48,072 nt of DNA from an uncultured Pseudomonadales bacterium (lineage in GTDB: Bacteria; Patescibacteriota; Microgenomatia; UBA1400; MFAQ01). The stretch lies in contig CAZGSP010000061.1 in the NCBI GenBank assembly GCA_964528565.1, forward strand, positions 1-48,072, given 5' to 3'. The notes beneath the pieces were generated by a model. It had not been told where the DNA came from. It ran no database searches and was given only the letters and a program-made list of their open reading frames with translations. Made by a program: the position numbers and the translations under genes. Shown in pieces: positions 805-45,919 of this stretch. How positions within the stretch are numbered: the first letter of the stretch is position 1; every line of letters starts with the position of its first letter.

Positions 805-807
805 AAA

Positions 808-825
808 CTCCCGCAAATGCGGGAG
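808..825. terminator. Hairpin between convergent genes (CTCCCGC-AAAT-GCGGGAG)
   Basis: A perfect 7-bp GC-rich stem sits directly after the lexA stop, between two convergent genes. A-rich sequence lies on its left side. Confidence 0.55.
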
Positions 826-833
826 CGGTAAGC

Positions 834-1061: not shown

Positions 1062-1111
1062 AATTACTCCTTTTGAGGTAAGGTGCGCTTCCAGGGTATT
1101 ATAATACATCA

Positions 1112-9415: not shown

Positions 9416-10849
9416 ATGAAAATTAACCCATTAATTTTTAGAAATTACGATATCCGGGGAGTAGTTGATGTTGACCTGAATGTGGAGAGCGTAGAAGCCT
9501 TGGGGCGGGCTTACGGGACATTTCTTGTTAGAAGGAAAATAGGTCAGATGGTTTGTGGAAGAGATTGCCGGCTCTCCGGACCGGTATTCCAAAAGGCGTT
9601 TATGAAAGGGGTCGTCAGTACCGGAGTCGACATCATCGATCTGGGTTTGATCATGACACAGATGATGTATTTTGGGCAGTATAAATTTCAGACAAACGGC
9701 GGAGCCATCCTGACCGCTTCACACAATCCAAAGAACTTTAATGGGTTTAAATTGGCTGTTGGGTATTCCCAAACAACCGGCCCGGAGGACGTCCAAGAAC
9801 TGAGAAAATACGTTGACAATGATGAATATTTTATTTCTGCCCGTAAAGGCAAGATCTCGACTGCCGATATCAAAGAAGACTATATCGTAGACCTTTTGAA
9901 AAGAGTCAAGATCGGAAAGAAGTTCAAGGTCGTAGTCGACTCTCATTGTGGCACTACCGGCTTGTATGTTCCGGAAATATTACGAAGAGCCGGCTGTCTT
10001 GTAGTGGAGATGAATGCAGTCGTAGACGGCTCCTTTCCGGCAGGTACTCCGGACCCTACGGACGGCAAGCTGATGGAGGCTCTCGCGACCGTAGTGAAAA
10101 AAAAGAAGGCGGATTTGGGCCTAGCTTTTGACGGAGACGGCGACAGGATCGGATTGGTGGATGAAAAGGGACGCGTCCTTTGGAACGATGTGGCCGTAGC
10201 CATTTTTGCCGAAGAAATATTGGAGAGATTCCCGGGGTCTAAAATCATTTTTAATACTTTGTGTTCCCAAGTAGTGCGTGAAGTGATAAAAATTCACGGC
10301 GGAGTACCGATAGTATGGAAGACCGGTCATGCTTTTATCAAAAGTAAGATCGCCGAGGAGAGAGCCGCCTTCGGGGGTGAACTGTCCGGACATTTTTTCT
10401 TTGCCGATAATGCTTATGGGCATGATGACGGTGCCTATGCGGCCCTGAGGATCTTGGAGTATTTAGCGGAGAAAAAGCTATCTCTTTCTCAGCTGTATGA
10501 GAGTTTCCCCAGCTATATTTCTTCGCCGGAGATAAAGATCGGTTGTCCGGACGATAAGAAGATCGCGGTGGTCAAAGATCTGTCAAAAAGATTTATGGCT
10601 GATTTTCCCAAGGCTCAAATTACCGACGACTCGGTGATTCCGGGAGACGACGGGGTAAGAGCCGATTTCCCCGACGGAATGATGGTCTTCCGCTACTCGC
10701 AGAACGGCCCATACATTACCATCAAGTTTGAAGCAAAAGACCAAAAGGTATTTGACGAAAGAAGGGCTTATGTGAGCGCTATGCTTCATAAATATCCGGA
10801 AATGATATGGGAGGATCAGCTTTGCGTGAATCTTGATTTCCTGGATTAA
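9416..10849 (+). CDS. Phosphomannomutase/phosphoglucomutase paralogue
   Basis: It has TASHNP, FDGDGDR and GGELSGH. It is clearly alignable by eye to the divergently transcribed neighbour. I prefer the ATG at 9416 over the TTG at 9407. Confidence 0.8.
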   Translation: MKINPLIFRNYDIRGVVDVDLNVESVEALGRAYGTFLVRRKIGQMVCGRDCRLSGPVFQKAFMKGVVSTGVDIIDLGLIMTQMMYFGQYKFQTNGGAILTASHNPKNFNGFKLAVGYSQTTGPEDVQELRKYVDNDEYFISARKGKISTADIKEDYIVDLLKRVKIGKKFKVVVDSHCGTTGLYVPEILRRAGCLVVEMNAVVDGSFPAGTPDPTDGKLMEALATVVKKKKADLGLAFDGDGDRIGLVDEKGRVLWNDVAVAIFAEEILERFPGSKIIFNTLCSQVVREVIKIHGGVPIVWKTGHAFIKSKIAEERAAFGGELSGHFFFADNAYGHDDGAYAALRILEYLAEKKLSLSQLYESFPSYISSPEIKIGCPDDKKIAVVKDLSKRFMADFPKAQITDDSVIPGDDGVRADFPDGMMVFRYSQNGPYITIKFEAKDQKVFDERRAYVSAMLHKYPEMIWEDQLCVNLDFLD

Positions 10850-11698: not shown

Positions 11699-12937
11699 TT
11701 AGAAGTGATAAAGGAAGGGATGTCGGCTTTTGATCTCCATGATCTGGGCGATGACCTCAGGGTCACCGACGTTCTTACCGGCCGAGTCGGGCACCTTGGC
11801 CACTTTGGTCCACTCTTCACCTTGCTTGAACGGATCAAAAGCCCAGGGCTTGACCACCATGTTGAGCGGAGTGTAGGCAGGGGTCTTTTTAAAGTAGTCT
11901 TTGTTGTTGGTCCAGAAGCCGCCGATTCCATAAGCTGTCGGAAACCACCGGGTGACAACTTTTTCGATCGCTTTTGCCCCGGAAATGGAAAGTGAGTCGG
12001 TGAACATAAGCGTCACGGTCGCGGGATCGATGTCGTTTGTCGGATATTTTAAGAAGTGGAGAACGTCGGTAGCGAAGGTGATCGGATCCCCGCTATCGTG
12101 CCGATAACTTTTGATCAACCTGGCCATACCTGGGGTGAGGGTGGCGAAGAAGAAATCGGATCCCCATGTGTCCGGCAATGCAGTGCCCAGATTGTCGCCG
12201 TAGATAGCTCTCCAAGCGATCGAGGCGGCCATATTGGCATTTTCAACGCCGTACAAAGCACCATGGAATAGATACCATAAGTGGGCGACGGTCCCTTTTG
12301 GTGAGAGACCGGACATTCTGGCGTGATACGGAGAACTACTCCCGACATACGACTCCCCGCCATACTTAATCAGATTCTCCGTGACGATGTCTTGTATCCA
12401 GCTATAGGCGCGTCGACGGAGACCGAACTCGGATACCTTAAGTCCGGCGGCCCGCATTTCCCAGATATTTTTGAGTAGTTCATCGATCCAGTTATCATCG
12501 GGATAGTAACCCAGCTCCTCGTTCCTGGTCTGTGAAGTGACAGCCATGAAGATTTGTTCATCGAACATAATATCCGACCAGGGCCCGATAATTTTTCCGA
12601 ACAGATGACCCTCTTCGTCCTGCCAGACCTTGATGTATTCGGGAACAAAGCGGTATTTTTCCAGCCATTCGAAGAAATCGTTGGCCAGAAAGCCCCATTT
12701 TTCCCGGAGAAATTTCTGCAGACCCGGGTCAGAGCTCAGGGAGCGAAGATCCTGAAATTTTTCGGTCAAGAGACCGGCAAACCCCTTTGGATAGATCGCG
12801 TAATTACGGTCGACCACTTCATACCACGCCCAAGCACCAGGATATAGCTGAATGGCAGCATTGATCATGGAACAGTTGTAAACATCTGTTTCCAATACAT
12901 CACGAATGATATCGCTTCCGGAACTTCTGTGAGCCAT
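11699..12937 (-). CDS. pncB: Nicotinate phosphoribosyltransferase-like protein
   Basis: It has an N-terminal LETDVYNCSM (compare the TDxYKxTM of PncB) and EFGLRRR (compare DFGTRRR). The length is about 410 aa. Confidence 0.65.
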   Translation of the reverse strand: MAHRSSGSDIIRDVLETDVYNCSMINAAIQLYPGAWAWYEVVDRNYAIYPKGFAGLLTEKFQDLRSLSSDPGLQKFLREKWGFLANDFFEWLEKYRFVPEYIKVWQDEEGHLFGKIIGPWSDIMFDEQIFMAVTSQTRNEELGYYPDDNWIDELLKNIWEMRAAGLKVSEFGLRRRAYSWIQDIVTENLIKYGGESYVGSSSPYHARMSGLSPKGTVAHLWYLFHGALYGVENANMAASIAWRAIYGDNLGTALPDTWGSDFFFATLTPGMARLIKSYRHDSGDPITFATDVLHFLKYPTNDIDPATVTLMFTDSLSISGAKAIEKVVTRWFPTAYGIGGFWTNNKDYFKKTPAYTPLNMVVKPWAFDPFKQGEEWTKVAKVPDSAGKNVGDPEVIAQIMEIKSRHPFLYHF

Positions 12938-13034
12938 GCTTACCTCCGATTATTTTCGGCTTTAGCCGTTTTTAGAGTACGCTAAATTTCTACAGGATAT
13001 TATAGCGCATAGTGTAATAGTTACAAGATCTATC

Positions 13035-15500
13035 TCAGGTCCGTGCCCGATAAGCCATGAAGAGCTTAACGAATTCTACCCAGAGGATGGTAATGGCCGA
13101 AGCTATAAATGGATAAAGCCAGTGACCCAAACTCAGAGCTTCGACGCCGAGGATCTTATTTATGAAAGGGTGATATATACCAAGAAAGAGTAAAGTAAAA
13201 CCATAGACGACCGCGGCCAGGAGATATTTATTGTCCAGAAAGTTTATTTTTAAGATCGACCTCCTCAAATCTTTGTATGAAAAGATGTAGGTTAGGTCAA
13301 TTACCCCAATCACGGCAAAGGCAATGGATTGAGCAGACATTAGATTGTGACCGTTGAAGACGTGGACGAAGGCCAGAAGGGCGGTGAGGCCGGCAGTCAA
13401 ACTGATGGCGATTATCAAAAAGATCATGGGAAAATCCAAGATGCTTTCCTTAATGAGTTTTCTTGGCTTCTCATTCATAATTCCGTTTTCTTTCGGCTCA
13501 AAACCCAAGACGATATCCGGAGGCCCGTCGCAGATCAGATGGACAAATAAGATCTGAACAACGGTGAGCGGCAGCGGAACGTTTAACATTAGCGCCCCCA
13601 TGATCAAAACGATCTCGGCAAAAGAGTTTGAAAGCACATAGGCAACAACTTTTTTTATGTTGGCAAAAATAATTCGTCCTTCCTCGATGGCCGAGACGAT
13701 GGTTTTGAAGTCGTTGTCCAGAAGAATGATGTCAGAGGCCGCTTTGGCGACATCGGTGGCCGAGCCGACGGCAATTCCAATGTCGGATTTTTTTAGGGCG
13801 GGAGCGTCGTTCACCCCATCACCGGTCATGGCCACTACTTCTCCATTTGCCTGCAAAGCTTGAATGATTTTTAACTTTTGGATTGGAGCTACCCTGGCAA
13901 TCAGGGAAATACTTTTGATTTTTTGTCTTAGTTCGGCCGGTGATAATTTTTCCAGATCTTTACCCTCAAGCGACGAACCTTCCGAGACTTCCAAACCGAT
14001 CTCTTTAGCTACCCTGAGAGCTGTTTGCAGATGATCTCCGGTGATTATCTTAATGTCGATACCGGCCGCCCTGGCTCGAGAAATTGATTCCGATACCGTT
14101 TTCCTAACCGGATCTTTGATCCCGATCAATCCGGACCAGATAAAATCCGAGTTACTGTTTATATGAGAACCGTATCTTTTACACAAACCGACAACTCTAA
14201 GGCCCGATCTGGCCAAGTTCTCAAAATCCAGCAAGATGCCTGATTTTTGTTTTTTGGTCAGCCGGCAGAAATTGAGAATAATTTCCGGAGCTCCAATGAT
14301 GTGGGTATTGGTCTTGCCCGCAACTCTGGCGACAACCTTGGCGAATTTTTTATCACTGGCGAAGGCCTCTTCGTGGAGAATTTCGGCTTTATCAAGATAA
14401 TTTTGAGGATCATAGCCAAGCTCCTTTTTTAAATATTTCCAAATAGCGGTTTCCAGACTGGTTCTCTGAGTGTTTAAAAGAATTAACCCCCTGATGGCTT
14501 CCTTGTGGTTCTTAAAGTTCGTAGTAACTACTTTCATAACCCCTTCGGTAAGCGTACCTGTTTTATCGGTACAAATGACGGAGGTGGCACCCAGAGTCTC
14601 AATGGAGAGAAGTTTTTTAACCAAACCTCCCTTTTTTAATATTCTTCGAACCCCTATTGAAAGAATGACCGTAACGGCTATAGGAAGACCTTCGGGAATA
14701 GCGGCGACAGACAGAATGATGGAGTAACGCAACATGTTCCAAAGATCTTGTTTGTAAGCGAGACCAATGAGAAAAATCATTGTGGTTACCACGATGATAA
14801 TTAAAACAAGGGATTTGGAGAATGACTCAAGTTTTATCTGTAGAGGGGTGGGGGTGTCTACAATTTTGGTGAGACTCTTACCTATTTTTCCAATTTCTGT
14901 TTTTACTCCAGTATTTTCAACCAGCATCGTGCCTCTTCCGGCTACGACAGTGGTACCCATAAAGAGCCGACTGTTTTTGAGGTTGACCGATTTTTCGGAA
15001 GGCTCTTCTTCGCCGGTTAGAATTGCTTCATTGACCAGAATGTCGGTACCGTCGATCAGACGCCCATCTGCGGGGAGACTGTCACCCGAACCAAACAGAA
15101 CGATATCTCCGGGAACAATTGCCGACGCTTCAATGATTTGTCTGGCTCCATCCCGCATGACCGTGACGGTGGGTTTGATAATTTTTTTAAGAGCCAGCAG
15201 GGTTTTTTGGGCACTGTATTCCTGAAAAAAGCCCATGAGGACGTTTAGGATGATCACAGCGAATATCAGTATGGTGTCGAGGTACTCTTTAAAGAAGAGG
15301 GATATTAGGATGACTCCGAGGAGGATATAGATGAGGGGGCTTTTGAGCTGGGAGAGAAGAATCGACAAAACTCCGTAAGGCTTTTCTTCGGGAAGGGTGT
15401 TGGAACCATACTCTTTTTGCAGAGAAGGAATATCCGATGAATCCAGACCGGTATATTTCATAGTTATGTTTCTTACATAACTATACCTATTTTTCGCCAT
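13035..15500 (-). CDS. Cation-transporting P-type ATPase (P2-like)
   Basis: It has LTGEEEP (TGE), CTDKTGTLT (phosphorylation site), MTGDGVNDAPALKKSD and multiple TM helices. An alternative start is the ATG at 15461. Confidence 0.9.
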   Translation of the reverse strand: MAKNRYSYVRNITMKYTGLDSSDIPSLQKEYGSNTLPEEKPYGVLSILLSQLKSPLIYILLGVILISLFFKEYLDTILIFAVIILNVLMGFFQEYSAQKTLLALKKIIKPTVTVMRDGARQIIEASAIVPGDIVLFGSGDSLPADGRLIDGTDILVNEAILTGEEEPSEKSVNLKNSRLFMGTTVVAGRGTMLVENTGVKTEIGKIGKSLTKIVDTPTPLQIKLESFSKSLVLIIIVVTTMIFLIGLAYKQDLWNMLRYSIILSVAAIPEGLPIAVTVILSIGVRRILKKGGLVKKLLSIETLGATSVICTDKTGTLTEGVMKVVTTNFKNHKEAIRGLILLNTQRTSLETAIWKYLKKELGYDPQNYLDKAEILHEEAFASDKKFAKVVARVAGKTNTHIIGAPEIILNFCRLTKKQKSGILLDFENLARSGLRVVGLCKRYGSHINSNSDFIWSGLIGIKDPVRKTVSESISRARAAGIDIKIITGDHLQTALRVAKEIGLEVSEGSSLEGKDLEKLSPAELRQKIKSISLIARVAPIQKLKIIQALQANGEVVAMTGDGVNDAPALKKSDIGIAVGSATDVAKAASDIILLDNDFKTIVSAIEEGRIIFANIKKVVAYVLSNSFAEIVLIMGALMLNVPLPLTVVQILFVHLICDGPPDIVLGFEPKENGIMNEKPRKLIKESILDFPMIFLIIAISLTAGLTALLAFVHVFNGHNLMSAQSIAFAVIGVIDLTYIFSYKDLRRSILKINFLDNKYLLAAVVYGFTLLFLGIYHPFINKILGVEALSLGHWLYPFIASAITILWVEFVKLFMAYRART

Positions 15501-21329: not shown

Positions 21330-21475
21330 ATTAAATATTGACATAGCGGGATCTCGAATGACGGAGCCGTGTCGACGGCGAGTCGGGGCCTGAGGGAAAC
21401 TCAGCAGAGTTTTACCGAAAGGAGTCCCGCCTCTCGAGTTTTGGTCTGTCGGAGGAGTCCCGCATAAATATTTTT

Positions 21476-21548
21476 GGCCCCGTCGTCTAGTGGTTAGGAC
21501 GTCAGGTTTTCATCCTGAATATCGCGGGTTCGAGTCCCGCCGGGGTCA
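21476..21548 (+). tRNA. tRNA-Glu (anticodon UUC)
   Basis: Acceptor GGCCCCG/CGGGGTC (one G-U pair), anticodon arm TCAGG-TTTTCAT-CCTGA, T-arm GCGGG-TTCGAGT-CCCGC, discriminator A. CCA is not encoded. Confidence 0.9.
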
Positions 21549-23029
21549 CCCTCATTTTGATTACCACCTGAAAGGGTGGTAATTGCTTGAAAGAGCGGTC
21601 CAATTTGTGAGTTCGAAAAGCCTGGAAACGAGTAAATCACTCCATTTGGAAATACTGCTCTCTGTAAATCTGTTTTTGTTGATATATCAGCGTCAAACCA
21701 AAACAAGTGAAGGGTTCGAAAGAAGTTGTCGGCGAAAGACAATAACATGTCCAGTTTTATCTCTTCCCCGTGACTTTGATTTACCTCAAGCTTGAGTTGA
21801 AGTAATTTTGACTTTATCTTGGCTAGTTGCTCTCTTGCGTCGTCTTCATCCAAAACCTCACTACTAGCCAGGTCAATGACCCTTTGTTTTTTGGCTTCCC
21901 AAACAAGTATTTCTTTTCGCGCTCTCTTAGAAGTATCTTCCGCCGTTTCCATTTCGTCCTCAAACTTCTTGGTAAGTTTTACCTTGACGCTTTCCCACCG
22001 TTCAGGGTTGGGCCTCACGCCTTTGAGGAACTCTAGGAAGGCATTTTCTATGACGTGTTTGTCCACAGACTTGACCCCTGGATTGGTACAGGCTTTGTTA
22101 TGGCAGTAGTATTTATAGTATTGCTTGGTGTTACCTTTTACAGGAGAGGCTGTCATTTTCTTCCCGCAAAAACTACAAATAAGGTTGTCTCTCAGTGGGC
22201 ACAATTCATTTATAGTTAGTTTGGTGGCTTTGAGTGGGTTTATCCTCTCTTGGCAAGTTCGAAAGGTTTCTATATCAATCAGCGGTTTATGCCTGCCTTC
22301 GTATTCTTCCCCCACACTTGGCTTAAGTATTCCAATATAGAAGGGGTTTTGAAGGACTTTCAAAACGTACGTTCGCGAGAAGTTTATTTTTTGACCTTTG
22401 AAGTTCTTTATATTTTTCTCAGTCAGCCAATTTGATATTTCGGTAACGCTTCCGCCATTGGCGTGTTTCTGGAATATTTTTGTGAAGTAGTCCGCACAAC
22501 CTTTATCTAAAATGGCCACATCGGCTTTACCATTGTCGGTTTGTTTATTGATGTAACCACCTGGAGCTTTCCATGGCCATATTCCATGACTCAAAAGGTT
22601 CTTCATGGCTAGGTTTACTCTTTCTTTTTTAACTTCGTTTTCGAATTGGGCAATAGCGACCATTACTGCTTCTGTAAGCCTCCCTGAGGGCGAGTCTTCA
22701 AGCCTCTCAGAAGCCGAGACTATCGTCATTCCCTTTTTAGTCAGTTCGGATTTGATGTAGTAATAGACTGGAGAGCTCCTAGCTACTCTATCTATTTTGT
22801 AGAAAACAACAAAATCAGCTTGTCCTTTATATTTTTCGCAAAACTCCAATAGGCGGGCGACTCTTTTCTCATTTGTTTCTTTTGCACTTTCCGCCTCTAC
22901 AATGTCGGTTCCAATTACTTCCCAGCCTAAATTTTTACAGTGATTTCTACACTGCTCAAGCTGTACCTCAGTGGAGGTATTACCGATTTGCTTCGGGTCG
23001 GAGAATCTTGTCGTTATTAAAGCTTTCAT
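21494..23029 (-). CDS. Large serine recombinase (integrase)
   Basis: It has an N-terminal resolvase domain (ITTRFSDPKQ with catalytic Ser; KIDRVARS), a recombinase domain, a zinc ribbon (CSFCGKKMTASPVKGNTKQYYKYYCHNKAC) and a coiled-coil stretch. The last 55 nt of the ORF are antisense to tRNA-Glu. Confidence 0.9.
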   Translation of the reverse strand: MKALITTRFSDPKQIGNTSTEVQLEQCRNHCKNLGWEVIGTDIVEAESAKETNEKRVARLLEFCEKYKGQADFVVFYKIDRVARSSPVYYYIKSELTKKGMTIVSASERLEDSPSGRLTEAVMVAIAQFENEVKKERVNLAMKNLLSHGIWPWKAPGGYINKQTDNGKADVAILDKGCADYFTKIFQKHANGGSVTEISNWLTEKNIKNFKGQKINFSRTYVLKVLQNPFYIGILKPSVGEEYEGRHKPLIDIETFRTCQERINPLKATKLTINELCPLRDNLICSFCGKKMTASPVKGNTKQYYKYYCHNKACTNPGVKSVDKHVIENAFLEFLKGVRPNPERWESVKVKLTKKFEDEMETAEDTSKRARKEILVWEAKKQRVIDLASSEVLDEDDAREQLAKIKSKLLQLKLEVNQSHGEEIKLDMLLSFADNFFRTLHLFWFDADISTKTDLQRAVFPNGVIYSFPGFSNSQIGPLFQAITTLSGGNQNEGDPGGTRTRDIQDENLTS

Positions 23030-23246: not shown

Positions 23247-23450
23247 TCAGGAACCGCTTGAGTCTTGTTCGCCTTGTTGGTTCTTTATTTCTCGAAATAT
23301 CTCAAACGACATTGCAGTACATCCACACTTTTGGCAAAGCACACCGTCTGTTTTTTTCTTATTCACCCATCCTCCACAAATTTGGCCATTGTGCTTGTGG
23401 TCGCATTTTATTTTGACTGTTTTGTCTTCTTCCATGAGGACAATATACAC
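23247..23450 (-). CDS. Small zinc-ribbon protein
   Basis: It has C-x-H ... C and C-x2-C-x-C (KCDHKHNGQICGG ... LCQKCGC). It is 67 aa, or shorter if the start is MEEDK. Confidence 0.4.
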   Translation of the reverse strand: MYIVLMEEDKTVKIKCDHKHNGQICGGWVNKKKTDGVLCQKCGCTAMSFEIFREIKNQQGEQDSSGS

Positions 23451-24416: not shown

Positions 24417-24716
24417 TTATTGAGAGACCGTGTTACAAGCCTCTCCCAGCCCTACCATTGATTTTTCTATGAGGTCGTAAACTTTAATAATTGTTTTCTC
24501 CATGTCTTTAAGCTGGGAAACTTTCTTGGCATTCTTTTTGAAGAGAATTTCAGCTAAATACTCAAAAAGATTGGCAAGGTTTGGGTGGTACGTTCTTTCG
24601 GACCATTCAATGTCCCCGTTTCCTCGAACTCTTTTATGGGTTGCCAGAATCCACTGGTATTCGTCCACCAGAACGGCGAACTTTGGTTTTTTTGACTCGA
24701 AAATGATTTTTGTCAT
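24417..24716 (-). CDS. Hypothetical protein (99 aa)
   Basis: The ORF is in operon context, with a 4-nt overlap with the upstream gene. No family was recognised. Confidence 0.45.
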   Translation of the reverse strand: MTKIIFESKKPKFAVLVDEYQWILATHKRVRGNGDIEWSERTYHPNLANLFEYLAEILFKKNAKKVSQLKDMEKTIIKVYDLIEKSMVGLGEACNTVSQ

Positions 24717-25156
24717 TTGTTTTTAGTATTGGTTTTGATAGTTTCATTTTTCTTCAGTTCCCGAACCTTATTCATGTACTGCCTCATGTAAATTCTTCTT
24801 TTCTCCCTTTGCTCCTCATTTCTTCTTTGGTAAATCAGTCTCAACAATGCCCGTCGATTAGCTACGCGACACTCCTCACACAGAATCTTTCTGAATTCTC
24901 TAGGTTTGCCACAGCGACAAAGTTTTTCTGTGAGAGAAGACTTTCTGTAGGCTTTTTGGTATTCCATGATGTGCTCGTGGTTTTTGGCAAGGTAGATTTT
25001 CCTTTTTTCCTTCAGCTCCTCCTTGTGCTTTAATTGGTAACGTTTGTTTGTCTCTTGCTTCCACTTCTTTTCTTTCTTGGTTCGACACTCCTCACAGAAA
25101 TGCTGATATGGCTTGCTTTGGAATGTGTGGTGGCAGGATGGGCAGGTTTTTTCCAT
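24713..25156 (-). CDS. Basic double zinc-ribbon protein with an internal duplication
   Basis: There are two modules, CPSC-x12-CEEC followed by a Lys/Arg-rich helix, and CRC-x10-CEEC followed by an Arg-rich helix. The HFCEECR / ILCEECR motif is repeated. Confidence 0.5.
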   Translation of the reverse strand: MEKTCPSCHHTFQSKPYQHFCEECRTKKEKKWKQETNKRYQLKHKEELKEKRKIYLAKNHEHIMEYQKAYRKSSLTEKLCRCGKPREFRKILCEECRVANRRALLRLIYQRRNEEQREKRRIYMRQYMNKVRELKKNETIKTNTKNK

Positions 25157-25171
25157 GGTTTTTAATAATTT

Positions 25172-26014
25172 TTAAAATCTTTCTTTTAGCCAGTCGTGTT
25201 GTTCTCCACGTCTCAGCCAGTTGTTTAGATACGCTTGGTAATTTTTTACGGTCTTACCTTCCGCTTCCAGGTAGTCGTAAGCTTTCTCCCCTTCCGTGAC
25301 TACGTCGTTAACTTCCATTTGGTAGACAATCGCCAAGTGTTCTAGTTCCTCATCGGGGATATTTTTGAGCCATTCCTTGTTTCCAGTTCCCGCTAATCGC
25401 GAATTGGGGGTGTCTGTATCTGAAGCTTCTACCTCTCCTACGTTATCTACGTTACTTACGTTATTTACATAAATACTTTTATTACTGATTACTTTGTTTA
25501 CCTTGAGAGAGAAACCTAAAGAAACACCCCTTATGTAGGCACGAATTCGTTTCACCCATGAAACAGACTGTTTCACCCATGAAACGGCAGGCACGAAATC
25601 CATGTAAAGAAAACTGTCATTTTGTGCGTAGTCCGTTTCACCTATGAAACGGAAGGCTTCCATAAATAGTTTCTTGTTACTTGCTCTGTGGCAGAATAAA
25701 TCAAGTGCGTCTGTGGGAATTAGCCGACCATTATCTAAGCGCAAGACTAGACCAACAGCGATAAGTTTGTTCACATCTCTTGAGATTGACGGCTTACTTC
25801 TTCCGCTCATTTCTGACAATTCGTCGTATGACTCTCTAACCTCAAGCCAGTCAATTTTTCTACAGTCCCACACGGCGAGCGTGAGAAGTAATTCCCAAAT
25901 AATGAACTCGCCCTCTGACAAGCTTTTTTCTTTTTTAACTGTCCATCTACTTCGTGGCATGGGTTGCCAACCTTTCAAACTGTTTTTATTGGTTATCTTT
26001 CTCCAGTTACCCAT
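25172..26014 (-). CDS. Replication-initiator-like protein (winged-helix N-domain, repeat-encoded linker, C-terminal helical domain)
   Basis: It has an HTH-like segment (SYDELSEMSGRSKPSISRDVNKLIAVGLV) and a C-terminal ...KNYQAYLNNWLRRG resembling the DnaD/replisome-organiser type motif. Iteron-like DNA repeats sit in the middle of the gene. Confidence 0.5.
   Translation of the reverse strand: MGNWRKITNKNSLKGWQPMPRSRWTVKKEKSLSEGEFIIWELLLTLAVWDCRKIDWLEVRESYDELSEMSGRSKPSISRDVNKLIAVGLVLRLDNGRLIPTDALDLFCHRASNKKLFMEAFRFIGETDYAQNDSFLYMDFVPAVSWVKQSVSWVKRIRAYIRGVSLGFSLKVNKVISNKSIYVNNVSNVDNVGEVEASDTDTPNSRLAGTGNKEWLKNIPDEELEHLAIVYQMEVNDVVTEGEKAYDYLEAEGKTVKNYQAYLNNWLRRGEQHDWLKERF
25439..25468. repeat. 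3.3 tandem copies of the 9-bp unit TACGTTAYY, next to an AT-rich stretch
   Basis: The sequence is TACGTTATC TACGTTACT TACGTTATT TAC, followed by ATAAATACTTTTATTACTGATTACTTTGTTTA. Confidence 0.7.
25549..25650. repeat. Three copies of a 16-bp dyad-symmetric iteron GTTTCACC(C/T)ATGAAAC
   Basis: The copies lie at 25549-25564, 25570-25585 and 25635-25650. The first two are exact and 21 bp apart start to start. Each has 6-bp inverted arms GTTTCA/TGAAAC. Confidence 0.7.
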
Positions 26015-26246
26015 TTAAGTTCTCCTTTCTCAAGGTAACTTTTTTACTTAGTTCCCCAGGTATTTTTTCCATGGTAATGAAGCCAGCTCTTTCTAATCTT
26101 TTGAAGGCGGCGTTTACATCCTGTTTTCTCGCCCCTAAGTCATCAGCTAGTCCAGACTGTTTACCGTTAAAAACTTCTTCACTTCTGAGAATATCCAGGA
26201 TTGTTCTTTCTATCCAACCTAATTTTTTTGGTGTGTTATAAACCAT
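26007..26246 (-). CDS. Small winged-helix DNA-binding protein (MarR/ArsR-like), first gene of the leftward operon
   Basis: WIERTILDILRSEE...QSGLADDLGARKQDVNAAFKRLERAGFI matches the wHTH recognition-helix pattern. Confidence 0.55.
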   Translation of the reverse strand: MVYNTPKKLGWIERTILDILRSEEVFNGKQSGLADDLGARKQDVNAAFKRLERAGFITMEKIPGELSKKVTLRKENLNG

Positions 26247-29865: not shown

Positions 29866-30909
29866 CTATATTGACTCACACGCAATCCCATCATCAACCT
29901 TGACGCCGTCAAGCTTCATGGGGTCATTGGTGGCAGTAAAACCACAGCAGTTAAAAAATGTTTGAGCTTCGGAATGAGATGAGAAGTCAGAACAGTCTCT
30001 ATCTGGTGAAGAACAAGAGTATTTACAGGAACCCCCTGAAGTAGCAGGAGCGTTTGTGGGTGCGTTATTAGTTGTCTTGGTAGGTGTGGGGGTAGCTACA
30101 GGACAAGCGTCGTCTGCCCATAAACCTTCTTTATTTTCTTCAGCCGTCCTCTGCGCTTGTTTGTAAATATCACGGTATTTATAAGGGGTGTTGTAAGTGT
30201 ACTCATGGGCGTAACCGTATTCAATCATAGCTTTGCCAAAGTCCTCTCTTCCATCGGCAACCCAGACATACCTCAACAACCTGCTGTATTTATCTCGCTC
30301 TCCCTGTGTCGGGTCGGCTTCGAGCAATACAGTTTTATTGTTCCCCATTACTTCTTTAGCAAAATCAGAGGCCTCTTTTCCAAAACATTCAACAGGTTTT
30401 CTGGGGTCAACCACTTCAGGGGTGTCTATTCCGATTATTCTAATTCTTTCAGTTTTTCCATTTATCTCAACATCAATAGTGTCACCATCAACAACCTTCA
30501 CCATCTTGGCTTCTGTTTTGGTACTTGAGACTTCGGTGGTTGGTGTGACTTCTGGTCTTGTTTCAGCTTGTACTGCGGGGCTGACAGAAATGGTTGTTGT
30601 GGGTGTAACCTCGGTCTTCTCAACAGGAGGAGTGCTGATTGGACTACTCGGAACATTACCCATAAAGGCAAAGCTTAAAACGACACCCGTAATCACTTTC
30701 GCCTTGGTTGAGAGGGCAATGGGTTTCTTGAGGCTTAACAGGTATTTAGAAATTCTTTTCTCTATTGGAGGAACCAACAACGCTGTTACAAGTAAACCCA
30801 GAAGACCCGCTAGAGGTGAGGTTGGAAAGTAAACAATAGCCGAGAGTAAAAAGAAAACACCACCAACCCATCGCAAGAAATTTGTTGACCAAAAAATGGT
30901 TTTTTTCAC
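29866..30909 (-). CDS. Membrane-anchored thermonuclease (staphylococcal-nuclease fold) with a C-terminal Excalibur calcium-binding domain
   Basis: It has N-terminal TM helices and a Thr/Pro-rich linker. The SNase core is VVDGDTIDVE...RIRIIGIDTPE...RLLRYVW...GYA. The Excalibur motif is DCSDFSSHSEAQTFF...DPMKLDGVKVDDGIACE. The ORF starts at a GTG. Confidence 0.8.
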   Translation of the reverse strand: MKKTIFWSTNFLRWVGGVFFLLSAIVYFPTSPLAGLLGLLVTALLVPPIEKRISKYLLSLKKPIALSTKAKVITGVVLSFAFMGNVPSSPISTPPVEKTEVTPTTTISVSPAVQAETRPEVTPTTEVSSTKTEAKMVKVVDGDTIDVEINGKTERIRIIGIDTPEVVDPRKPVECFGKEASDFAKEVMGNNKTVLLEADPTQGERDKYSRLLRYVWVADGREDFGKAMIEYGYAHEYTYNTPYKYRDIYKQAQRTAEENKEGLWADDACPVATPTPTKTTNNAPTNAPATSGGSCKYSCSSPDRDCSDFSSHSEAQTFFNCCGFTATNDPMKLDGVKVDDGIACESI

Positions 30910-31208: not shown

Positions 31209-32462
31209 ATGGCAGAAAAAGGTTTATGGTCAATCGGAAATTTCAATTTACCCGACTTTGGAATTAGTGAGGCGCTGAATATTGGTCCAAAAAATGCTTC
31301 GATAGTTTCTCCCGAAATGTCGAAATGGCAACAGTATTCTGGTCCCATAGGTTCAAATGTCCAACTTTCTCCAAACGCGTCCCCTATCTTGAAAGCAAAC
31401 CAAATCCAGACTCAGCCAAGTGGTGGGTCAGACGGTACACCTCCTAAAACATATTCTAATACTCCTACACCAGAGCCAACTCAAACAGGTGGTGGACTAA
31501 CAGCTGACGTTCTTAGAAGTAAATTTGGTTTCAGTGATGAAAATGTAATTCGCGGAATTTTAAACGACCCAGGTCAAAGACAAAGATATGAAAACGAAAT
31601 GGGTAGTAGTGCTCCGTCAGGACAAGACCCATTCGCCGAACTTTATCAAAGTTCAATCAGTGCTCTGACTGACGCTGAAAAAATGTTCCAAGGTCAAGCT
31701 GAAGAAGCTCGTAAAGGTGTTACCGAACAGGCAGGATTGGCAAGAAGTGCTTATGAAGAAGCTCTAGCAAAATCAAAGGAAGCATATACAACCCAGAGAG
31801 AAGACTTAACCAATGAAGAGAGAATGCTACAAGCTGAGAGTATCAGGGCTTACAACAATTTGAAGCAGTCCTATATGAACCGCTTTGGTGGTGGTTCTAG
31901 CACAGGAGCCGCTTTGGCTGATTTAGTAGGTCAACAATTCATCCGTTCCAGTGGACAACTTCGTGAGAAATATTTGTCAGGTGTCAAAGTTTTGCAGGCC
32001 GCCGAAAGAGACGCCTTCACCAACTTTAATCAAGCAGTCCAGACTCTTGAGCAAAGTATTGTTCAAAGTAACCGTGAGATAAATGCCAACTTGGCAACTG
32101 AACTTCAAAACATCTCAATGCAAAAGGCAGGACTGGAAGATAACAAGCGCGCCATGAGAGAAGAAGCAATGCGCACAGCAATGGCAAACGCTCAACAGCT
32201 ACAGGCGACAAGAGAGCAAAAAATATTCGATTTGGGTTTGTGGAAATTACAAAGGGACGAAGAAATTGGAAAAGGTTCCGCCTTCCTTGACGACTTAGCT
32301 AGTGAAGTAGCTTCAAGTATGAAGTCCCAAAAATACGCCATGCAGAGTGCGGTTCTTCAGCCAAATAGATTCTTTACAGAAAACGGTTCATACAGCATGA
32401 ACCGAACAAGTCCCAAGGGCACCGACCCATACGAAGACGCAGGATTATTAGGTAACCGTTAA
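31209..32462 (+). CDS. Hypothetical protein with a Pro/Thr/Gly-rich N-region and a long Gln/Ala-rich coiled coil
   Basis: The 417-aa ORF is the first gene of the long rightward block. No family was recognised and no clear SD was seen. Confidence 0.5.
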   Translation: MAEKGLWSIGNFNLPDFGISEALNIGPKNASIVSPEMSKWQQYSGPIGSNVQLSPNASPILKANQIQTQPSGGSDGTPPKTYSNTPTPEPTQTGGGLTADVLRSKFGFSDENVIRGILNDPGQRQRYENEMGSSAPSGQDPFAELYQSSISALTDAEKMFQGQAEEARKGVTEQAGLARSAYEEALAKSKEAYTTQREDLTNEERMLQAESIRAYNNLKQSYMNRFGGGSSTGAALADLVGQQFIRSSGQLREKYLSGVKVLQAAERDAFTNFNQAVQTLEQSIVQSNREINANLATELQNISMQKAGLEDNKRAMREEAMRTAMANAQQLQATREQKIFDLGLWKLQRDEEIGKGSAFLDDLASEVASSMKSQKYAMQSAVLQPNRFFTENGSYSMNRTSPKGTDPYEDAGLLGNR

Positions 32463-32465
32463 AAA

Positions 32466-35400
32466 ATGTCCTTTATCGACAATATTTTTAAGCTAGGTCA
32501 ACCTAAGGCGGCTGAAAAAGTTCAGGCCGATATACGGGCTAAGGCTGAGAAGGAAAAGCAGTTCAGCAAAGCTGGTCTTGGTTCTTGGTATTCCTCAATT
32601 GAGAAGCCCGTGGGTTCTTACAACTTCATTGACTATCCGACTCCAAAGCCTGAACTCCCGAAAAATATCACCATGCAAATTCAGGAAGCATTAGATAACT
32701 TCCATAATAAAAATCCCAAGGTGTCTTCATTTCTTGGTGGTGCGATTAGAAGCACCACGGAAATGCTAGCAAAAATTGAGAACACTCTTACCAATAAAGA
32801 GACTCCAATTGGATGGGTCGGTGGTTTTCCTAAAAGAACAGGAGAGGCAATGGCAGGCCAAGCAATAAGTGGTATAGAACAGATTAAGTCACAAACACCG
32901 TCTACGATTCCTTTTACCAATAAAAAAGTAAATGCAAATGTCGCAGGTGTAGGAAAAATAATGACTTCACCTTTAGCCGCTTTTGGAATGGGTTCAATGC
33001 TTGCTGGTGATACTACTGAAGCGTTGACAAAACCTATTTTTGGAAGAAATTCATTAGTTCCTCCATTACTAAATTTGGGAGTCTCCTTAATCACTCCAGG
33101 GAATGAGGTGAAAGATATTCAGAAAGCCCAATCGCTTTTACAAAAACTTGAAAGTGGTGGAGGCAAGCTAACTCAGATACAAAAAGAGTTTAGAGCCCTC
33201 CCCCTTGAGAAAAGATTATCCTACCTAACTGGAAAATTCAGTGACGTCGAACTTACAAAAATGTCAGCTTCATCAGCTTGGGCAAAAATCGAAAGAGTAG
33301 AAAAAGAAACCGAGAAAACTTCCAAGACATTTAATCCAATTTTCGCTAGATGGGTCGCTGGCCGAGACATGGCCAAGTCGTTAGGAGCTTACGAAGCCTT
33401 GTCGGTTCACGTTCCTAAAAACGTGACAGGTGAAACTTTCCTACATAGACTTGAAAACACAATTGGCAAGAGTACCCCCGAAGTCGAAAGAGCTGTTACT
33501 CAAATCAGGGCTAAGCTGGACACGTTACATCGTGAAGCGAAGTCTGCTGGTATTCCCTTGGGTTACTTGGAAAACTATGCTCCTCACTTGTGGAGACAAT
33601 CTAAAGAAGAAGTTGAGGCCATATTTAAGTCTGCTGGCAAATTCAAACACGCAGGAGAAAGAAAAATCCCGACTTATGCGGAAGGTATTGAATTGGGACT
33701 TACCCCATTATTTTCTGATGTTCGTCAGGTTGTCGGACTTTATTCTCAAAGGTTAAGTGAAGCAAAAGCGAATCTAAAATTTATTCAGGATTTAAAACAA
33801 AATAAACTCATTGCCTCAAGTGCAGACAGACTTCCTGGATGGGTCCAAGTAACAGCCGAAGGTTTTCCTAAGTCAGTTATAAAGACGGGAAGTAAAACAG
33901 CTGAGAGTAACTTTTACGCTTCTCCCGAAGTGGCTCAAGTTTTGAATTATATTTTTGGAGTTAAGACCCAAAGTGGCGCGGAGAAGATTATCGCTGGTGC
34001 CGCCAATATTTCAGGAAAACTTCAAGACTTTACTCTAAGCGGTGGTATTCCAAAAACTCCAATAAATGCATGGTCACTTAGTCAGTACTTATTTAAGGAA
34101 GTTCCTGCTGGCCGTCTTACAGGCGGTCCCAAAGCTTTGTACCACTCAATGGTCGATAGTGAAAAGTATTTCGAGACTAACCTACCCATCATCAAGAAAA
34201 TGCAGGAGGCAAATATTCCCATGAATACTTCACTTACTATTCAGAATATTGGCAAGAATTTATTTAGAAATATGGATGAGGGAGATAAGATAAAAACACT
34301 TGGAGGTAATGTCGCCGAGAACTGGAAGAACTTTAATCTGGACAATCCAGGTATTGGTCAAAAATTAGAGATTGTTTGGAACCAGGCAATGAATGAAACA
34401 ACTTTTAAGAAGTTTATGCCAGCCCTACAAATCGAATTTTGGAAGGACACCTACAATGCAATGATAAAAAGCGGTAAGGCAGAAGCAGAAGCCTCCCGCA
34501 TTGCCTCACAGGCCACTAAGAACTTCTACGGAATAACGTCCACAGACACTTTAGCCAAACAAAGTGAGTTAGGGAGAAATATTATCTCCACCATATTGTT
34601 CGCACCACGATATCGCGAAACGATGGTCAATTTTTTAGTGAACACCGCCAAGTCAGTAGCCCATCCCCTATCACCAGAATACGCCGCTAACCGTAACTTT
34701 ATTATTGGAAAAGTTTTGCAGTACGCCATGTATGACCAAGTAAACCAACAAACTACTGGTAACCACATTTGGGATAACCCAGCTGGATATAAAGATAAAA
34801 TTTTAATTAAGACCGACGATGGTTACACAGGAGTTCCTTTCGACTCTTCTATTCTTACCATCCCGCGCGCCATAGGTGCTGTAGGACAAAAGGTGGGCGA
34901 GGGTGACGTCCCTGGTGCCATGACTACAGCCGTTTCGAGGTTTGGGTCCACAGGAATAGCTCCACTTGGTGACTTGTTTAGAAATAAAGATTATTTTGAC
35001 CGCGAAATTGTCAAAGCGACGGACACACCAGAAGAAAAAGCCAAGAAGTCATTTATGTACTTGGTAGGCCGTTGGTCACATCCCTACGCTAGGGAGATTT
35101 TAGACCCCAGAAGTACAGACGACCCACTTTATCAACGCCTAAGCCGTGCCGCTGAATTACCTGTTAAATATTATTCGACAGCAAGTATTGAGTCCGCGAA
35201 TTACTTTAATAATTTAAAGGAGTCGCTTAAGAGTCTCAGTCCAGAGGAGAGGGCAATTGTTGAGAAAAACAACACTCTGAAAGCTGAGAAAAAATTAAAA
35301 CTGGATGAAGACGGTACACCTTCAAACGCCACAAACCAATTCGAGAAAATGGCCAAAGCCGCCGAAAGGTTAGCTTACCCTGGAATTATAAAGGCGGAAA

Positions 35401-35993
35401 CGGAAGCACAACTTAAGACACATGAACAGACAGGAGAACTTGTCAGTCCTTACTACTACTTGGCACCAGAACAGCAAAAGACCATTGAGATGTTAAAAAT
35501 GTTTTTCCCAGGTGACCCTGAGAAAGCAAAAATAATTAAAGCAAATGAGAACTGGATTCAAAGCTACTATTCCAAGCTAAGCGCATATTACGACTACATG
35601 AAAGCCAGTGGGAAGTTTGGCGACGTTATGCAGGAGTCAGGTGCGCCAGTCCAGACACCAGAGTTGAAAGCAAAAATAAATGAGTATTTTGCACTACCTA
35701 CAGGAACGGGTCAAAAGTCTCGTTACCTTATGGCAAATCCAGACTTACAAAAATATTTTACTGATAGTGCTAATTGGAAGAACGCCCAGAGAATGGAACT
35801 AGGTTTATCCCTTCTTCCTGAATATGGTTATGGAAGTGGCGGTAGTAAACCAAGGGGCGCGGTCAAGTCATTTGGTGCTGGTCCAAAACTAAAGACAAGT
35901 ACGCTGAAAATCCCTAAGGTCAAAGTGGCTAAATTAAAAACACTGAAAACACCAAAATTAAAAATTAAACCTTTAAAGGAGAAAAAATTATGA
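32466..35993 (+). CDS. Large hypothetical protein (1175 aa) with a periodic Lys-rich C-terminal tail
   Basis: It is an uninterrupted 3.5-kb ORF starting 4 nt after the previous stop. The tail is PKLKTSTLKIPKVKVAKLKTLKTPKLKIKPLKEKKL. No family was recognised. Confidence 0.55.
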   Translation: MSFIDNIFKLGQPKAAEKVQADIRAKAEKEKQFSKAGLGSWYSSIEKPVGSYNFIDYPTPKPELPKNITMQIQEALDNFHNKNPKVSSFLGGAIRSTTEMLAKIENTLTNKETPIGWVGGFPKRTGEAMAGQAISGIEQIKSQTPSTIPFTNKKVNANVAGVGKIMTSPLAAFGMGSMLAGDTTEALTKPIFGRNSLVPPLLNLGVSLITPGNEVKDIQKAQSLLQKLESGGGKLTQIQKEFRALPLEKRLSYLTGKFSDVELTKMSASSAWAKIERVEKETEKTSKTFNPIFARWVAGRDMAKSLGAYEALSVHVPKNVTGETFLHRLENTIGKSTPEVERAVTQIRAKLDTLHREAKSAGIPLGYLENYAPHLWRQSKEEVEAIFKSAGKFKHAGERKIPTYAEGIELGLTPLFSDVRQVVGLYSQRLSEAKANLKFIQDLKQNKLIASSADRLPGWVQVTAEGFPKSVIKTGSKTAESNFYASPEVAQVLNYIFGVKTQSGAEKIIAGAANISGKLQDFTLSGGIPKTPINAWSLSQYLFKEVPAGRLTGGPKALYHSMVDSEKYFETNLPIIKKMQEANIPMNTSLTIQNIGKNLFRNMDEGDKIKTLGGNVAENWKNFNLDNPGIGQKLEIVWNQAMNETTFKKFMPALQIEFWKDTYNAMIKSGKAEAEASRIASQATKNFYGITSTDTLAKQSELGRNIISTILFAPRYRETMVNFLVNTAKSVAHPLSPEYAANRNFIIGKVLQYAMYDQVNQQTTGNHIWDNPAGYKDKILIKTDDGYTGVPFDSSILTIPRAIGAVGQKVGEGDVPGAMTTAVSRFGSTGIAPLGDLFRNKDYFDREIVKATDTPEEKAKKSFMYLVGRWSHPYAREILDPRSTDDPLYQRLSRAAELPVKYYSTASIESANYFNNLKESLKSLSPEERAIVEKNNTLKAEKKLKLDEDGTPSNATNQFEKMAKAAERLAYPGIIKAETEAQLKTHEQTGELVSPYYYLAPEQQKTIEMLKMFFPGDPEKAKIIKANENWIQSYYSKLSAYYDYMKASGKFGDVMQESGAPVQTPELKAKINEYFALPTGTGQKSRYLMANPDLQKYFTDSANWKNAQRMELGLSLLPEYGYGSGGSKPRGAVKSFGAGPKLKTSTLKIPKVKVAKLKTLKTPKLKIKPLKEKKL

Positions 35994-38940: not shown

Positions 38941-38988
38941 GACACGATTGTATCAAGACGGATATCGATACGAAGTTATGATGTAAAA

Positions 38989-39010
38989 AAGTCCCGGGTT
39001 AGCGGGACTT
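38989..39010 (-). terminator. Rho-independent terminator of the PLD-like gene
   Basis: The minus strand reads AAGTCCCG-CTAACC-CGGGACTT followed by TTTTTAC, about 20 nt after the stop at 39030. Confidence 0.7.
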
Positions 39011-39029
39011 CGTAAGTAGTTTTCTGCGA

Positions 39030-40172
39030 TTATTTGGCTTGACAGGAATTGGCGAGAGTTTCGTGCGACATAGCTTTCATGCGTTCAAACTCTGCTTCAT
39101 AGGCGGATGCGAGTGACTCATCATATACGATCATAAGATTTTCGTCATTTTCCTTATCCGCACTGGCGGTGAAGTTGAAGGAGCCGAGAATGACTATCCG
39201 GCCATCGATGATGATAACCTTGTGGTGAAAAGTGCGGGGGTTCCCATCCAGGGTGACGTCGGCTCCTTGTTGCAGCAACGATGGACACTCGGAGTATTGA
39301 GTATCCGCGCCGCGTGTTTCGAAGATACCGGCGACCGAGACTCCCCTTTTAAGAGCGTTGATCATCGCCTCGCCCAAAGAATCGGCGGTAAAGGAAAAGG
39401 CCATAAAGTGAATGGATGTTCGGGCCGATCCAATGCGGCCGACAATTTTTTCCATGACATGATCTTCGGGGGCAAAGTAGATTTCGATTTTGATTCCGGC
39501 GACATTGATGATAGGGTGCGGAGTGTTCGCCGGAGACGAGGGACCAAACTGCCCGGAAAATAACTCTTCGAACTCGGTCGTGTAGTTCTCGGCGGCATCC
39601 GGTGAGCAGAAGTAGAGAGCGTTTTCGCTGTTCCGGTAAGCTGCGTTGACACTAATGTTAAAGGACCCGGTCCAGACACACTGTCCGTCAAACACAAAAA
39701 ACTTGTTGTGCATGAAGGCCGATCGATTGTCGGGAACTGCCGGTATGCCGGCACTTTTCAGCTTTCTTATCTGAGGATCCGGATCGGCAAACTCATCATC
39801 GTAGACGACTCGAACTTCGACACCACGGTTTTTGGCGGCTATCAAAGCCTGAGCTACATTTTCCAGTTCAAATTCGTAAACAGCCAGATCGATCGAAACC
39901 GACGACCGGTTTATTTTTTCGATTAGCCGGTCTTCTATTCCACCGGTGGTAACGTTATCAAAGGGAATTGCCGGAGAGGTGAAGTAAACTTCGTACCACA
40001 CATTTGAGGATCCGGCGGAGACCGTGGTGGGTGGCAGAAGAATCTCGGTAGGCGGAGAAGGCGGTATCTCTGGCGCGGTTTCAAATGTCGGACCAAGATA
40101 GAAATACATAGCGATAATGACAATGAGTGCCAGCAAAGGTGACCACTTAAGCTTGCTATTTGGATTGGGCAT
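39030..40172 (-). CDS. Membrane-anchored phospholipase D superfamily protein with two HKD motifs
   Basis: It has an N-terminal TM helix (LLALIVIIAMYFYLG) and a Pro-rich linker. The two motifs are HNKFFVFDGQCVWTGSFN and HHKVIIIDGRIVILGSFN, both fitting H-x-K-x4-D-x6-GSxN. Confidence 0.8.
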   Translation of the reverse strand: MPNPNSKLKWSPLLALIVIIAMYFYLGPTFETAPEIPPSPPTEILLPPTTVSAGSSNVWYEVYFTSPAIPFDNVTTGGIEDRLIEKINRSSVSIDLAVYEFELENVAQALIAAKNRGVEVRVVYDDEFADPDPQIRKLKSAGIPAVPDNRSAFMHNKFFVFDGQCVWTGSFNISVNAAYRNSENALYFCSPDAAENYTTEFEELFSGQFGPSSPANTPHPIINVAGIKIEIYFAPEDHVMEKIVGRIGSARTSIHFMAFSFTADSLGEAMINALKRGVSVAGIFETRGADTQYSECPSLLQQGADVTLDGNPRTFHHKVIIIDGRIVILGSFNFTASADKENDENLMIVYDESLASAYEAEFERMKAMSHETLANSCQAK

Positions 40173-40383
40173 AACGCTCCTCCAATCTGGATATAACTTT
40201 ATTGATCAGGTCCCGATTTAACGGATCGGTAGATATCCTATTGAGCAGTCGTACGACATGTATCTCATGATCCAGGTTTTGTGGTGACTGTTTTTCGACG
40301 TTATCCAAAAGTCGATAAATTCTTGAGGCGATCTCGTCGTCCAGGTTGTCCGTGAGAGTCTCATCGTCAAAATATCGGCACAT
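40156..40383 (-). CDS. Small hypothetical helical protein (75 aa) overlapping the PLD gene start
   Basis: The ORF has a 17-nt overlap with the downstream PLD-like gene. No family was recognised. Confidence 0.4.
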   Translation of the reverse strand: MCRYFDDETLTDNLDDEIASRIYRLLDNVEKQSPQNLDHEIHVVRLLNRISTDPLNRDLINKVISRLEERYAQSK

Positions 40384-40457
40384 ACAGCCTCCTTGTTAAG
40401 GTTCGGGTCGATTATATCAAGAAGCTAACCGGCTCTGTTAAATTAACCGAGTAAGTG

Positions 40458-40463
40458 TATAAT
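40458..40463 (+). promoter_or_regulatory. -10 element TATAAT 6 nt upstream of the Nudix gene start (leaderless configuration)
   Basis: TATAAT lies at 40458-40463 and the ATG at 40470. There is no room for a Shine-Dalgarno sequence. Confidence 0.45.
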
Positions 40464-40469
40464 TGACAC

Positions 40470-41144: not shown

Positions 41145-41156
41145 ATCACCGAAAAG

Positions 41157-41684: not shown

Positions 41685-41695
41685 AGGTACACATT

Positions 41696-45199: not shown

Positions 45200-45233
45200 A
45201 ACTGATTTATCATACGGGAGTCTTTGGGTCTTG

Positions 45234-45863: not shown

Positions 45864-45919
45864 ATTTCTGCCTATAGTATACTATATATACGAGCTTCCT
45901 TACTATGGATAACCGGAGA

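Follow-up and report, generated by a model that had tools for sequence, protein, structure and literature searches.

A probable lambda-O-type replication origin inside the initiator gene of an integrative element from a Patescibacteria bacterium

The window analysed here, 48,072 nucleotides (nt) of contig CAZGSP010000061.1 from an uncultured, ultra-small bacterium of the Patescibacteria (candidate phyla radiation, CPR), carries an integrated element of ~17.5 kb at a tRNA-Glu gene, and within that element a gene for a 280-amino-acid (aa) initiator-like protein (P0001) whose central part holds three dyad-symmetric repeats beside an easily melted tract. The dyad region is very probably a cis-acting DNA element bound by protein, and probably a replication origin of the lambda O type placed inside the initiator gene. 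The repeats carry their signal in the nucleotides, in a geometry that is conserved; their half-sites change symmetrically between related elements, and the flanking AT-rich DNA is the least stable duplex of the element. An origin within its initiator gene is a layout already known from lambda, and here it turns up in organisms about which little is known; mobile elements of the Patescibacteria (CPR) are poorly characterised, and the interest of the case lies in where the design occurs and in how cleanly it can be read.

The 16-bp dyads share the consensus GTTTCACC(C/T)ATGAAAC, in which 6-nt arms (GTTTCA and TGAAAC) flank an asymmetric CCYA centre; polarity is identical in all three, which are thus direct repeats of a dyad. 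Two are exact twins with a start-to-start distance of 21 bp, and the third is offset by 65 bp from the nearer twin (25570-25585), some six helical turns away from the phased pair. Exact dyad matches have a chance expectation of 0.00 (100 dinucleotide-preserving shuffles of the 48-kb window), and no further copy occurs anywhere in the window with up to three mismatches allowed. The sites and the DNA beside them are arranged as follows, in window coordinates.

25635..25650, no strand: iteron 1 (distal), GTTTCACCTATGAAAC, read as R-F-I-G-E-T (frame 0 versus frame 2 between copies)
25603..25629: spacer block of 27 nt between iterons 1 and 2, TGTAAAGAAAACTGTCATTTTGTGCGT, with 26 of 27 nt the same in a 51%-identical homologue
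25570..25585, no strand: iteron 2, GTTTCACCCATGAAAC
25549..25564, no strand: iteron 3, GTTTCACCCATGAAAC, two helical turns (21 bp) from iteron 2 and closest to the AT-rich region
25497..25524: conserved block, TTTACCTTGAGAGAGAAACCTAAAGAAA, containing GAAAC pentamers, near-identical in the related element L001 and showing no co-variation with the iterons
25442..25501: AT-rich segment, candidate DNA-unwinding element, with the lowest duplex stability of the 60-nt windows in the 17.5-kb element
25438..25468: 9-mer array (TACGTTAYY), 3.4 copies of CTACGTTAT by Tandem Repeats Finder, inside the AT-rich segment

The A+T content reaches 82.9% at 25466-25500 against 58% in both gene and element, and the segment at 25442-25501, despite being coding, ranks first of 17441 60-nt windows for ease of melting as computed from nearest-neighbour stacking energies. 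These features fall in the middle of the gene, the product of which was modelled with AlphaFold2 on a 36-sequence alignment; the model gives a confident winged helix (residues ~20-125), a low-confidence linker (residues 129-202, predicted local distance difference test (pLDDT) <50) and a confident group of C-terminal helices (residues 208-272), encoded as follows.

25172..26014, minus strand: initiator gene, 280 aa (P0001), winged helix, disordered linker and C-terminal helical domain
25640..25957, minus strand: DNA coding for the winged helix (residues ~20-125), pLDDT >90, the presumed iteron binder
25199..25393, minus strand: DNA coding for the C-terminal helical domain (residues 208-272), pLDDT ~95

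The iterons correspond to residues 122-157 and the AT-rich tract with its 9-mers to residues ~172-191, in or at the edge of the linker-coding DNA: the third dyad sits at the boundary of domain and linker, and the other two are linker-coding, as are the conserved blocks, the 9-mers and the AT-rich stretch. The repeat region encodes the peptides AVSWVKQSVSWVK and NNVSNVDNV. A first-pass annotation of this DNA, made from its letters alone, had described three 16-bp dyads with two exact copies 21 bp apart, an AT-rich stretch at about 25466-25500, tandem TACGTTAYY 9-mers and both of these odd repetitive peptides, all of which are in the sequence as described; its placement of the repeats between a winged-helix segment and a C-terminal helical domain agrees with the modelled layout.

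Whether the repeats are a DNA signal or a by-product of the peptide can be read from the only close homologue of P0001 among 5.8 billion proteins searched, P0002 (51% identical) of the syntenic element L001, the two proteins being the full-length members of the family. The L001 dyads at 10362, 10427 and 10448 keep the 65/21-bp spacing of the window, and a codon alignment superimposes the dyad centres to the nucleotide. The half-sites GTTTCA..TGAAAC have become GTGCAC..GTGCAC, with T to G at positions 2 and 4 mirrored by A to C at positions 15 and 13; the mirrored changes are complete in both phased L001 copies; in the distal one position 2 is still T, and the dyad there is imperfect. Over the same stretch the two elements encode diverged peptides (AVSWVKQSVSWVK in the window versus VCALVHQSCASMH in L001). 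The first-pass annotation had named a conserved peptide with loss of the DNA repeat as the finding that would turn the repeats into a protein feature, and the reverse is seen in L001. The two elements form a natural specificity swap, with the same geometry and with half-sites that differ at two mirrored positions, through which binding specificity becomes testable.

That the repeats are a mere linker peptide repeat, heptad-like (A-x-[VM]-[KH]-x-x-x) and devoid of DNA function, would fit the in-frame position of the copies spaced by 21 nt and the recurrence of A-x-V/M-K/H/Q in the same region of distant relatives. Iterons 2 and 3 do read V-S-W-V-K, whereas distal iteron 1 reads R-F-I-G-E-T in another frame, since an offset of 65 bp breaks the codon register; the distal copy is likewise out of frame in L001 (site 10362-10378), and out-of-frame copies occur in three loci (the window, L001 and L002). 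When synonymous codons were permuted within the gene, with protein and codon usage kept exactly, a mean of 0.30 copies of T[GT]CA-N4-TG[CA]A was left against 3 observed, and none of 5000 permutations reached 3, a motif that the peptide alone does not sustain. On the out-of-frame copies and the codon permutation the peptide repeat was rejected, and with a linker predicted to be disordered and a DNA geometry that persists where the peptide has changed it is scarcely credible as an explanation.

Constraint on the nucleotides extends beyond the dyads. Over residues 117-195 the window and L001 share 43% of the protein and 65% of the nucleotides, and identical residues use the same codon at 24 of 33 positions there compared with 54 of 106 elsewhere (Fisher P = 0.03); at residues 122-136 the two genes agree in all seven degenerate codons that they share, and two blocks (25603-25629 and 25497-25524) are near-invariant. 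The easiest-to-melt 60 nt of L001 (10515-10574) are the homologous segment, again rank 1, of 13493 windows. Its 9-mer array comprises at least six copies of TAATGTAAC, with the TAAYGTA core kept and the linker lengthened.

Part of the second near-invariant block had been taken in the first-pass annotation for half-sites. The GAAAC pentamers are indeed present (25511-25515 and 25521-25525), but their role as iteron half-sites was rejected, as the L001 half-sites become GTGCAC while the block stays TAAACCTAAAGAAAAC; they are more likely part of another factor's site than initiator half-sites, and the block at 25497..25524 is possibly the site of a second factor, perhaps a host one. Another short repeat, TAAAGARAACTGTC, is present in two copies in L001 (10394-10407 and 10482-10495, 88 bp apart) and in the window once in full and once in part (25604-25619 and 25517-25526). 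It brackets the phased iteron pair and may be a site for another factor.

Symmetric change at positions 2/15 and 4/13 is also what a conserved stem would produce, and the palindromes might accordingly be read as mRNA hairpins (6-bp stem, 4-nt loop) controlling translation, stability or processing. Shuffled sequence folds a little less well than the region itself (z = -1.84), but that is a weak score, and three separate hairpins do not appear in the minimum-energy fold. Half-site sequence is shared by the copies within an element and, as T[GT]CA-N4-TG[CA]A, across the family, which points to sequence recognition; all four copies of locus L006 (TTGCA...TGAAA) would carry a G-A mismatch in mid-stem, Rfam gives no match for the region, and phasing by helical turns of DNA (21 bp) would be irrelevant to a transcript. 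Hairpins are on these grounds highly improbable.

The degenerate motif T[GT]CA-N4-TG[CA]A occurs in 2-4 copies mid-gene in all eight genes compared (the window and seven further loci), and only three matches lie outside those genes in ~90 kb of locus sequence. Codon permutation of the seven other homologous genes again found the motif enriched, with P ranging from 0 of 5000 permutations up to 0.08. L006 has four copies in a strict 21-bp period, L008 has copies at gene nt 351, 372 and 393 (21-nt steps), L009 carries GTTTCA-N4-TGAAAC with the half-sites of the window, and L002 repeats a stretch of 14 nt exactly, with the copies read in two frames. L008, L009 and L010 had been left out of the motif definition and serve as an independent check, L010 being a close relative of L006. 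Wherever the region downstream of an initiator homologue is visible, a large serine recombinase follows 1-5 genes on. Scans of viral, genome and metagenome contigs by two-sequence alignment yielded no more relatives, nor did tblastn against phage and plasmid records. A comparison of recognition-helix residues with half-site type across eight proteins was not used as evidence, similar helices and similar iterons being confounded by phylogeny, as where a similar helix goes with a similar iteron in L002 and L008 (both TGCAAAAATGCA).

Sequence comparison suggests that P0001 is related to the O-type initiators through both of its domains. A profile-profile comparison, one of the checks proposed in the first-pass annotation, aligned a 12-sequence N-domain family including P0001 with the N-domains of six proteins, all above the Phage_rep_O (PF04492) threshold, over the whole domain (78 columns) with an hhalign probability of 96.6% and E 5.8e-10, a remote match to be read with the caveat that winged-helix families readily cross-match. 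Exhaustive HMMER searching gave 29 distant relatives, 23 of which match the C-domain alone and five the N-domain alone, and a profile search added five further N-domain relatives. The C-domain (family consensus YLxNIPxED...AxDWLxAKGKxYKNYxAFLRNWLR), presumed to be the recruiter of host replication proteins, is itself in no Pfam or PHROG model; in its alignment of 26 sequences six pass the Pfam threshold for Phage_rep_O and others carry DnaD_N or HTH_36, and the PHROG labels on its sharers are 'replication initiation O-like' and 'DnaD-like helicase loader'. The C-domain segment of one sharer, P0026, as distinct from that of P0001, matches only phrog_13246 'replisome organizer' (E 0.009). Foldseek found no match for the C-domain, and P0001 has no Pfam match to DnaD_N, DnaB_2 or replisome-organiser models and none in NCBIfam.

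Two genuine PF04492 genes that share the C-domain were examined as comparators (P0026 in locus L011 and P0013 in locus L012), and both have intragenic dyad iterons between the N- and C-domains. L012 carries 5-6 copies of GTTATCAAAAGTGATAAC, and L011 carries GTTACC-type dyads together with three copies of AGTTACCAATCTAGG in a 21-bp period; in both loci A-rich repeats come after the iterons. Their N-domains are canonical PF04492 domains, unlike that of P0001, and their iterons (GTTATC-N6-GATAAC in L012, GTTACC-type in L011) are unrelated in sequence to the window dyads. Both loci look phage-like because of the small and large terminase subunits on the L011 contig and the SSB and YqaJ-type exonuclease on that of L012.

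The likeness to the O genes of lambda, lambdoid and Stx phages is one of layout, the origin lying likewise mid-gene in linker-coding DNA and the initiator likewise combining a winged-helix N-domain with a C-terminal domain, here presumed to act in recruitment. In the lambda ori, too, several direct repeats of a dyad-symmetric site come first and the AT-rich tract after them in the direction of transcription. The window has three iterons of 16 bp versus four of ~19 bp in lambda and, unlike lambda, a long conserved spacer (49 bp) between iterons 1 and 2; it differs further in the lack of a direct PF04492 match, in a C-domain outside Pfam and PHROGs, in the lack of a P-like loader gene and of recognisable tailed-phage genes, in its CPR host and in a large serine recombinase instead of a tyrosine integrase. 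Copy-number variation changes linker length in both settings, through the 9-mer array here (3.4 versus at least 6 copies) and through the iterons in Stx phages, where additional copies lengthen O by 13 residues (PMC7466680). Iteron plasmids and Firmicutes plasmids with RepA_N-type initiators (for example pSK41 RepA, PDB 4pta/4pt7) likewise have a winged-helix initiator with repeats that can lie within or beside its own gene; the matches of P0001 to pSK41 RepA are weak and at the level of generic winged helices (E ~0.15 in sequence, TM-score 0.55 normalised to the target in structure), and P0001 has no Pfam match to RepA_N or Rep_3.

The main rival explanation, which we hold to be unlikely, is that the dyads are transcriptional operators, bound within the gene by a dimer of the MarR-like winged-helix protein itself or of its 79-aa partner, with no role in replication, acting either to block or attenuate transcription into downstream genes, including the serine recombinase, or to control an internal or antisense promoter. 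It draws on the direct family matches, which are solely sub-threshold: MarR, TrmB and Crp-type helix-turn-helix (HTH) domains and a PHROG 'transcriptional regulator', with MarR, TrmB and HTH_36 falling at residues 41-100 of P0001 and MarR and MarR_2 scoring 12-15 bits against cut-offs of 24.6-27. Foldseek adds generic MarR-like winged helices (E 4.5e-3 or weaker), besides the RepA_N initiator 4pta, and a PDB sequence search has the same outcome, so that the structure matches are those of MarR-type repressors. Palindromes of 16 bp are typical of MarR-type sites, and the recombinase 1-5 genes downstream in every locus with a visible downstream region offers a gene to regulate. MarR-family dimeric repressors thus resemble the system in joining a winged helix to palindromes of ~16 bp; the system departs from them in its sub-threshold scores, its extra linker, its O-associated C-domain and sites deep in the coding sequence beside an easily melted segment. 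The sites lie 360-470 nt inside the reading frame, there is no promoter-like site on either strand of 25430-25660, and no dyad copy occurs in the promoter region or elsewhere in the window. Operators would also leave unexplained the rank-1 melting segment conserved beside the sites, the O-type homology of both domains and the same layout in true Phage_rep_O genes.

The partner protein invoked here is encoded immediately upstream.

26007..26246, minus strand: 79-aa winged-helix gene, overlapping the start of the initiator gene by 8 nt

Its counterpart in L001 (9757-10008) lies in the same place and is 42% identical, and the 79-aa gene and the initiator gene appear to form a conserved cassette. 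Small genes likewise overlap the start of the initiator homologue in L002 and L006.

A different cis site for a winged-helix protein has also to be weighed, namely a pac site in a small-terminase-like gene or a partition centromere. Both arrangements have precedents: small-terminase genes may contain a pac site, and HTH proteins may bind centromere repeats. The structural and packaging genes of the element are unrecognisable, which leaves room for such a role. Both domains of the protein, however, point to replication initiators and not to terminases or ParB; L011 has separate small and large terminase subunits besides its iteron-bearing O-like gene, and no gene of the element was recognised as encoding a ParA-type ATPase. 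Either kind of site is very unlikely.

In the origin mechanism that we infer, the element would be excised by its serine recombinase and would replicate episomally, dimers of the 280-aa initiator binding the three dyad iterons via the N-terminal winged helix. The resulting nucleoprotein complex would strain or destabilise the AT-rich tract with its 9-mer array (25442-25501), which would unwind, and the C-terminal helical domain would bring host helicase or helicase-loading proteins to the opened DNA. The initiator gene's own transcription would run through the origin, as it does in lambda.

The case for an origin is a computational one, and several points weigh against it. The element lacks a recognisable helicase, loader, primase or polymerase, and no E. 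coli-type DnaA box (TTATCCACA-like, at most one mismatch) occurs in 25172-26014, a consensus that may not be that of the CPR host. GC skew, which the first-pass annotation had proposed as a check, shows no inflection at 25.5 kb and is judged uninformative for a 17.5-kb integrated element. A direct Pfam scan of P0001 returns just the sub-threshold MarR, TrmB and HTH matches, with PF04492 unlisted even at E up to 1, and leaves room for a plain regulator; the 79-aa winged-helix protein is a candidate for an alternative binder of the dyads or for an operon regulator. Short-form relatives (167-234 aa) have no O-like C-domain, and in them the AT-rich segment 3' of the iterons does not stand out as the most extreme stretch on the contig. 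The covariation, finally, comes from one close homologue and distant relatives in a very rare family. Of the first-pass proposal that this is the vegetative origin of the element, a lambda-ori-type cis element is supported, and 'vegetative' presumes a phage. No claim is made that the 9-mers are DnaA boxes; by eye, just 6-7 of 9 positions match TTATCCACA.

The element itself is marked by a fall in G+C from ~0.48 to ~0.41 between ~21.5 and 39 kb. Its left edge lies at a tRNA-Glu(ttc) gene (21475-21551), to the 3' half of which the last ~19 codons of the adjoining integration gene are antisense.

21494..23029, minus strand: large serine recombinase (PHROG integrase, E 3e-70)

The right boundary (~38950-39020) was placed by the G+C shift alone, and a search there for a right-hand repeat of the tRNA 3' end found none, as expected with a serine recombinase. 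The flanks (1-21400 and 39030-48072) hold host genes, among them those for a PEP synthase, a phosphoglycerate mutase and a P-type ATPase; the ATPase is 75% identical to a Candidatus Collierbacteria protein, the other best matches are to Patescibacteria, and the window is therefore read as a CPR chromosome with an integrated element, the host being, to judge from these matches, a Collierbacteria-like CPR bacterium. The recombinase is ~21% identical to its L001 counterpart (11952-13553), and the L001 end has no tRNA; the integration module has been swapped between the two elements, with the replication and large-protein modules retained.

The large-protein module consists of two adjacent open reading frames (ORFs) of 417 and 1175 aa (31209-35993) without a Pfam, PHROG or phage tblastn match, whose syntenic L001 counterparts are of 406 and 1045 aa (205-4562); they may encode structural or transfer proteins of an undescribed type of element or virus. 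The element has no recognisable capsid, terminase or tail gene. The recombinase nearby, the intragenic T[GT]CA-N4-TG[CA]A iterons and the conserved 417-/1175-aa module are the basis for a more speculative proposal, which we put forward as possible but doubtful, that the N-domain family marks an undescribed class of self-replicating Patescibacteria integrative elements, possibly a new kind of virus. Replicating vectors for Patescibacteria (CPR) are, to our knowledge, lacking. The compact initiator-plus-origin cassette is a concrete replicon candidate for these bacteria; if the proposal holds, its 0.85-1.1 kb would amount to a full minimal replicon, from which the first vectors able to replicate in CPR bacteria could be built.

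Among the remaining genes, a 99-aa ORF two genes downstream of the initiator (24417-24716, minus strand) matches phrog_154 'replication initiation protein' (E 2e-5) and may be a further gene of the replication module. Small lysine-rich proteins without a family match, with several CxxC zinc-ribbon motifs, are encoded between initiator and recombinase (24713-25156 and 23247-23450, both minus strand). A membrane-anchored thermonuclease (29866-30909, minus strand), NucI-like by its SNase domain (E 1e-33), has a spacer rich in Thr and Pro and a C-terminus rich in Cys, and is kept in both related elements (4937-5980 in L001).

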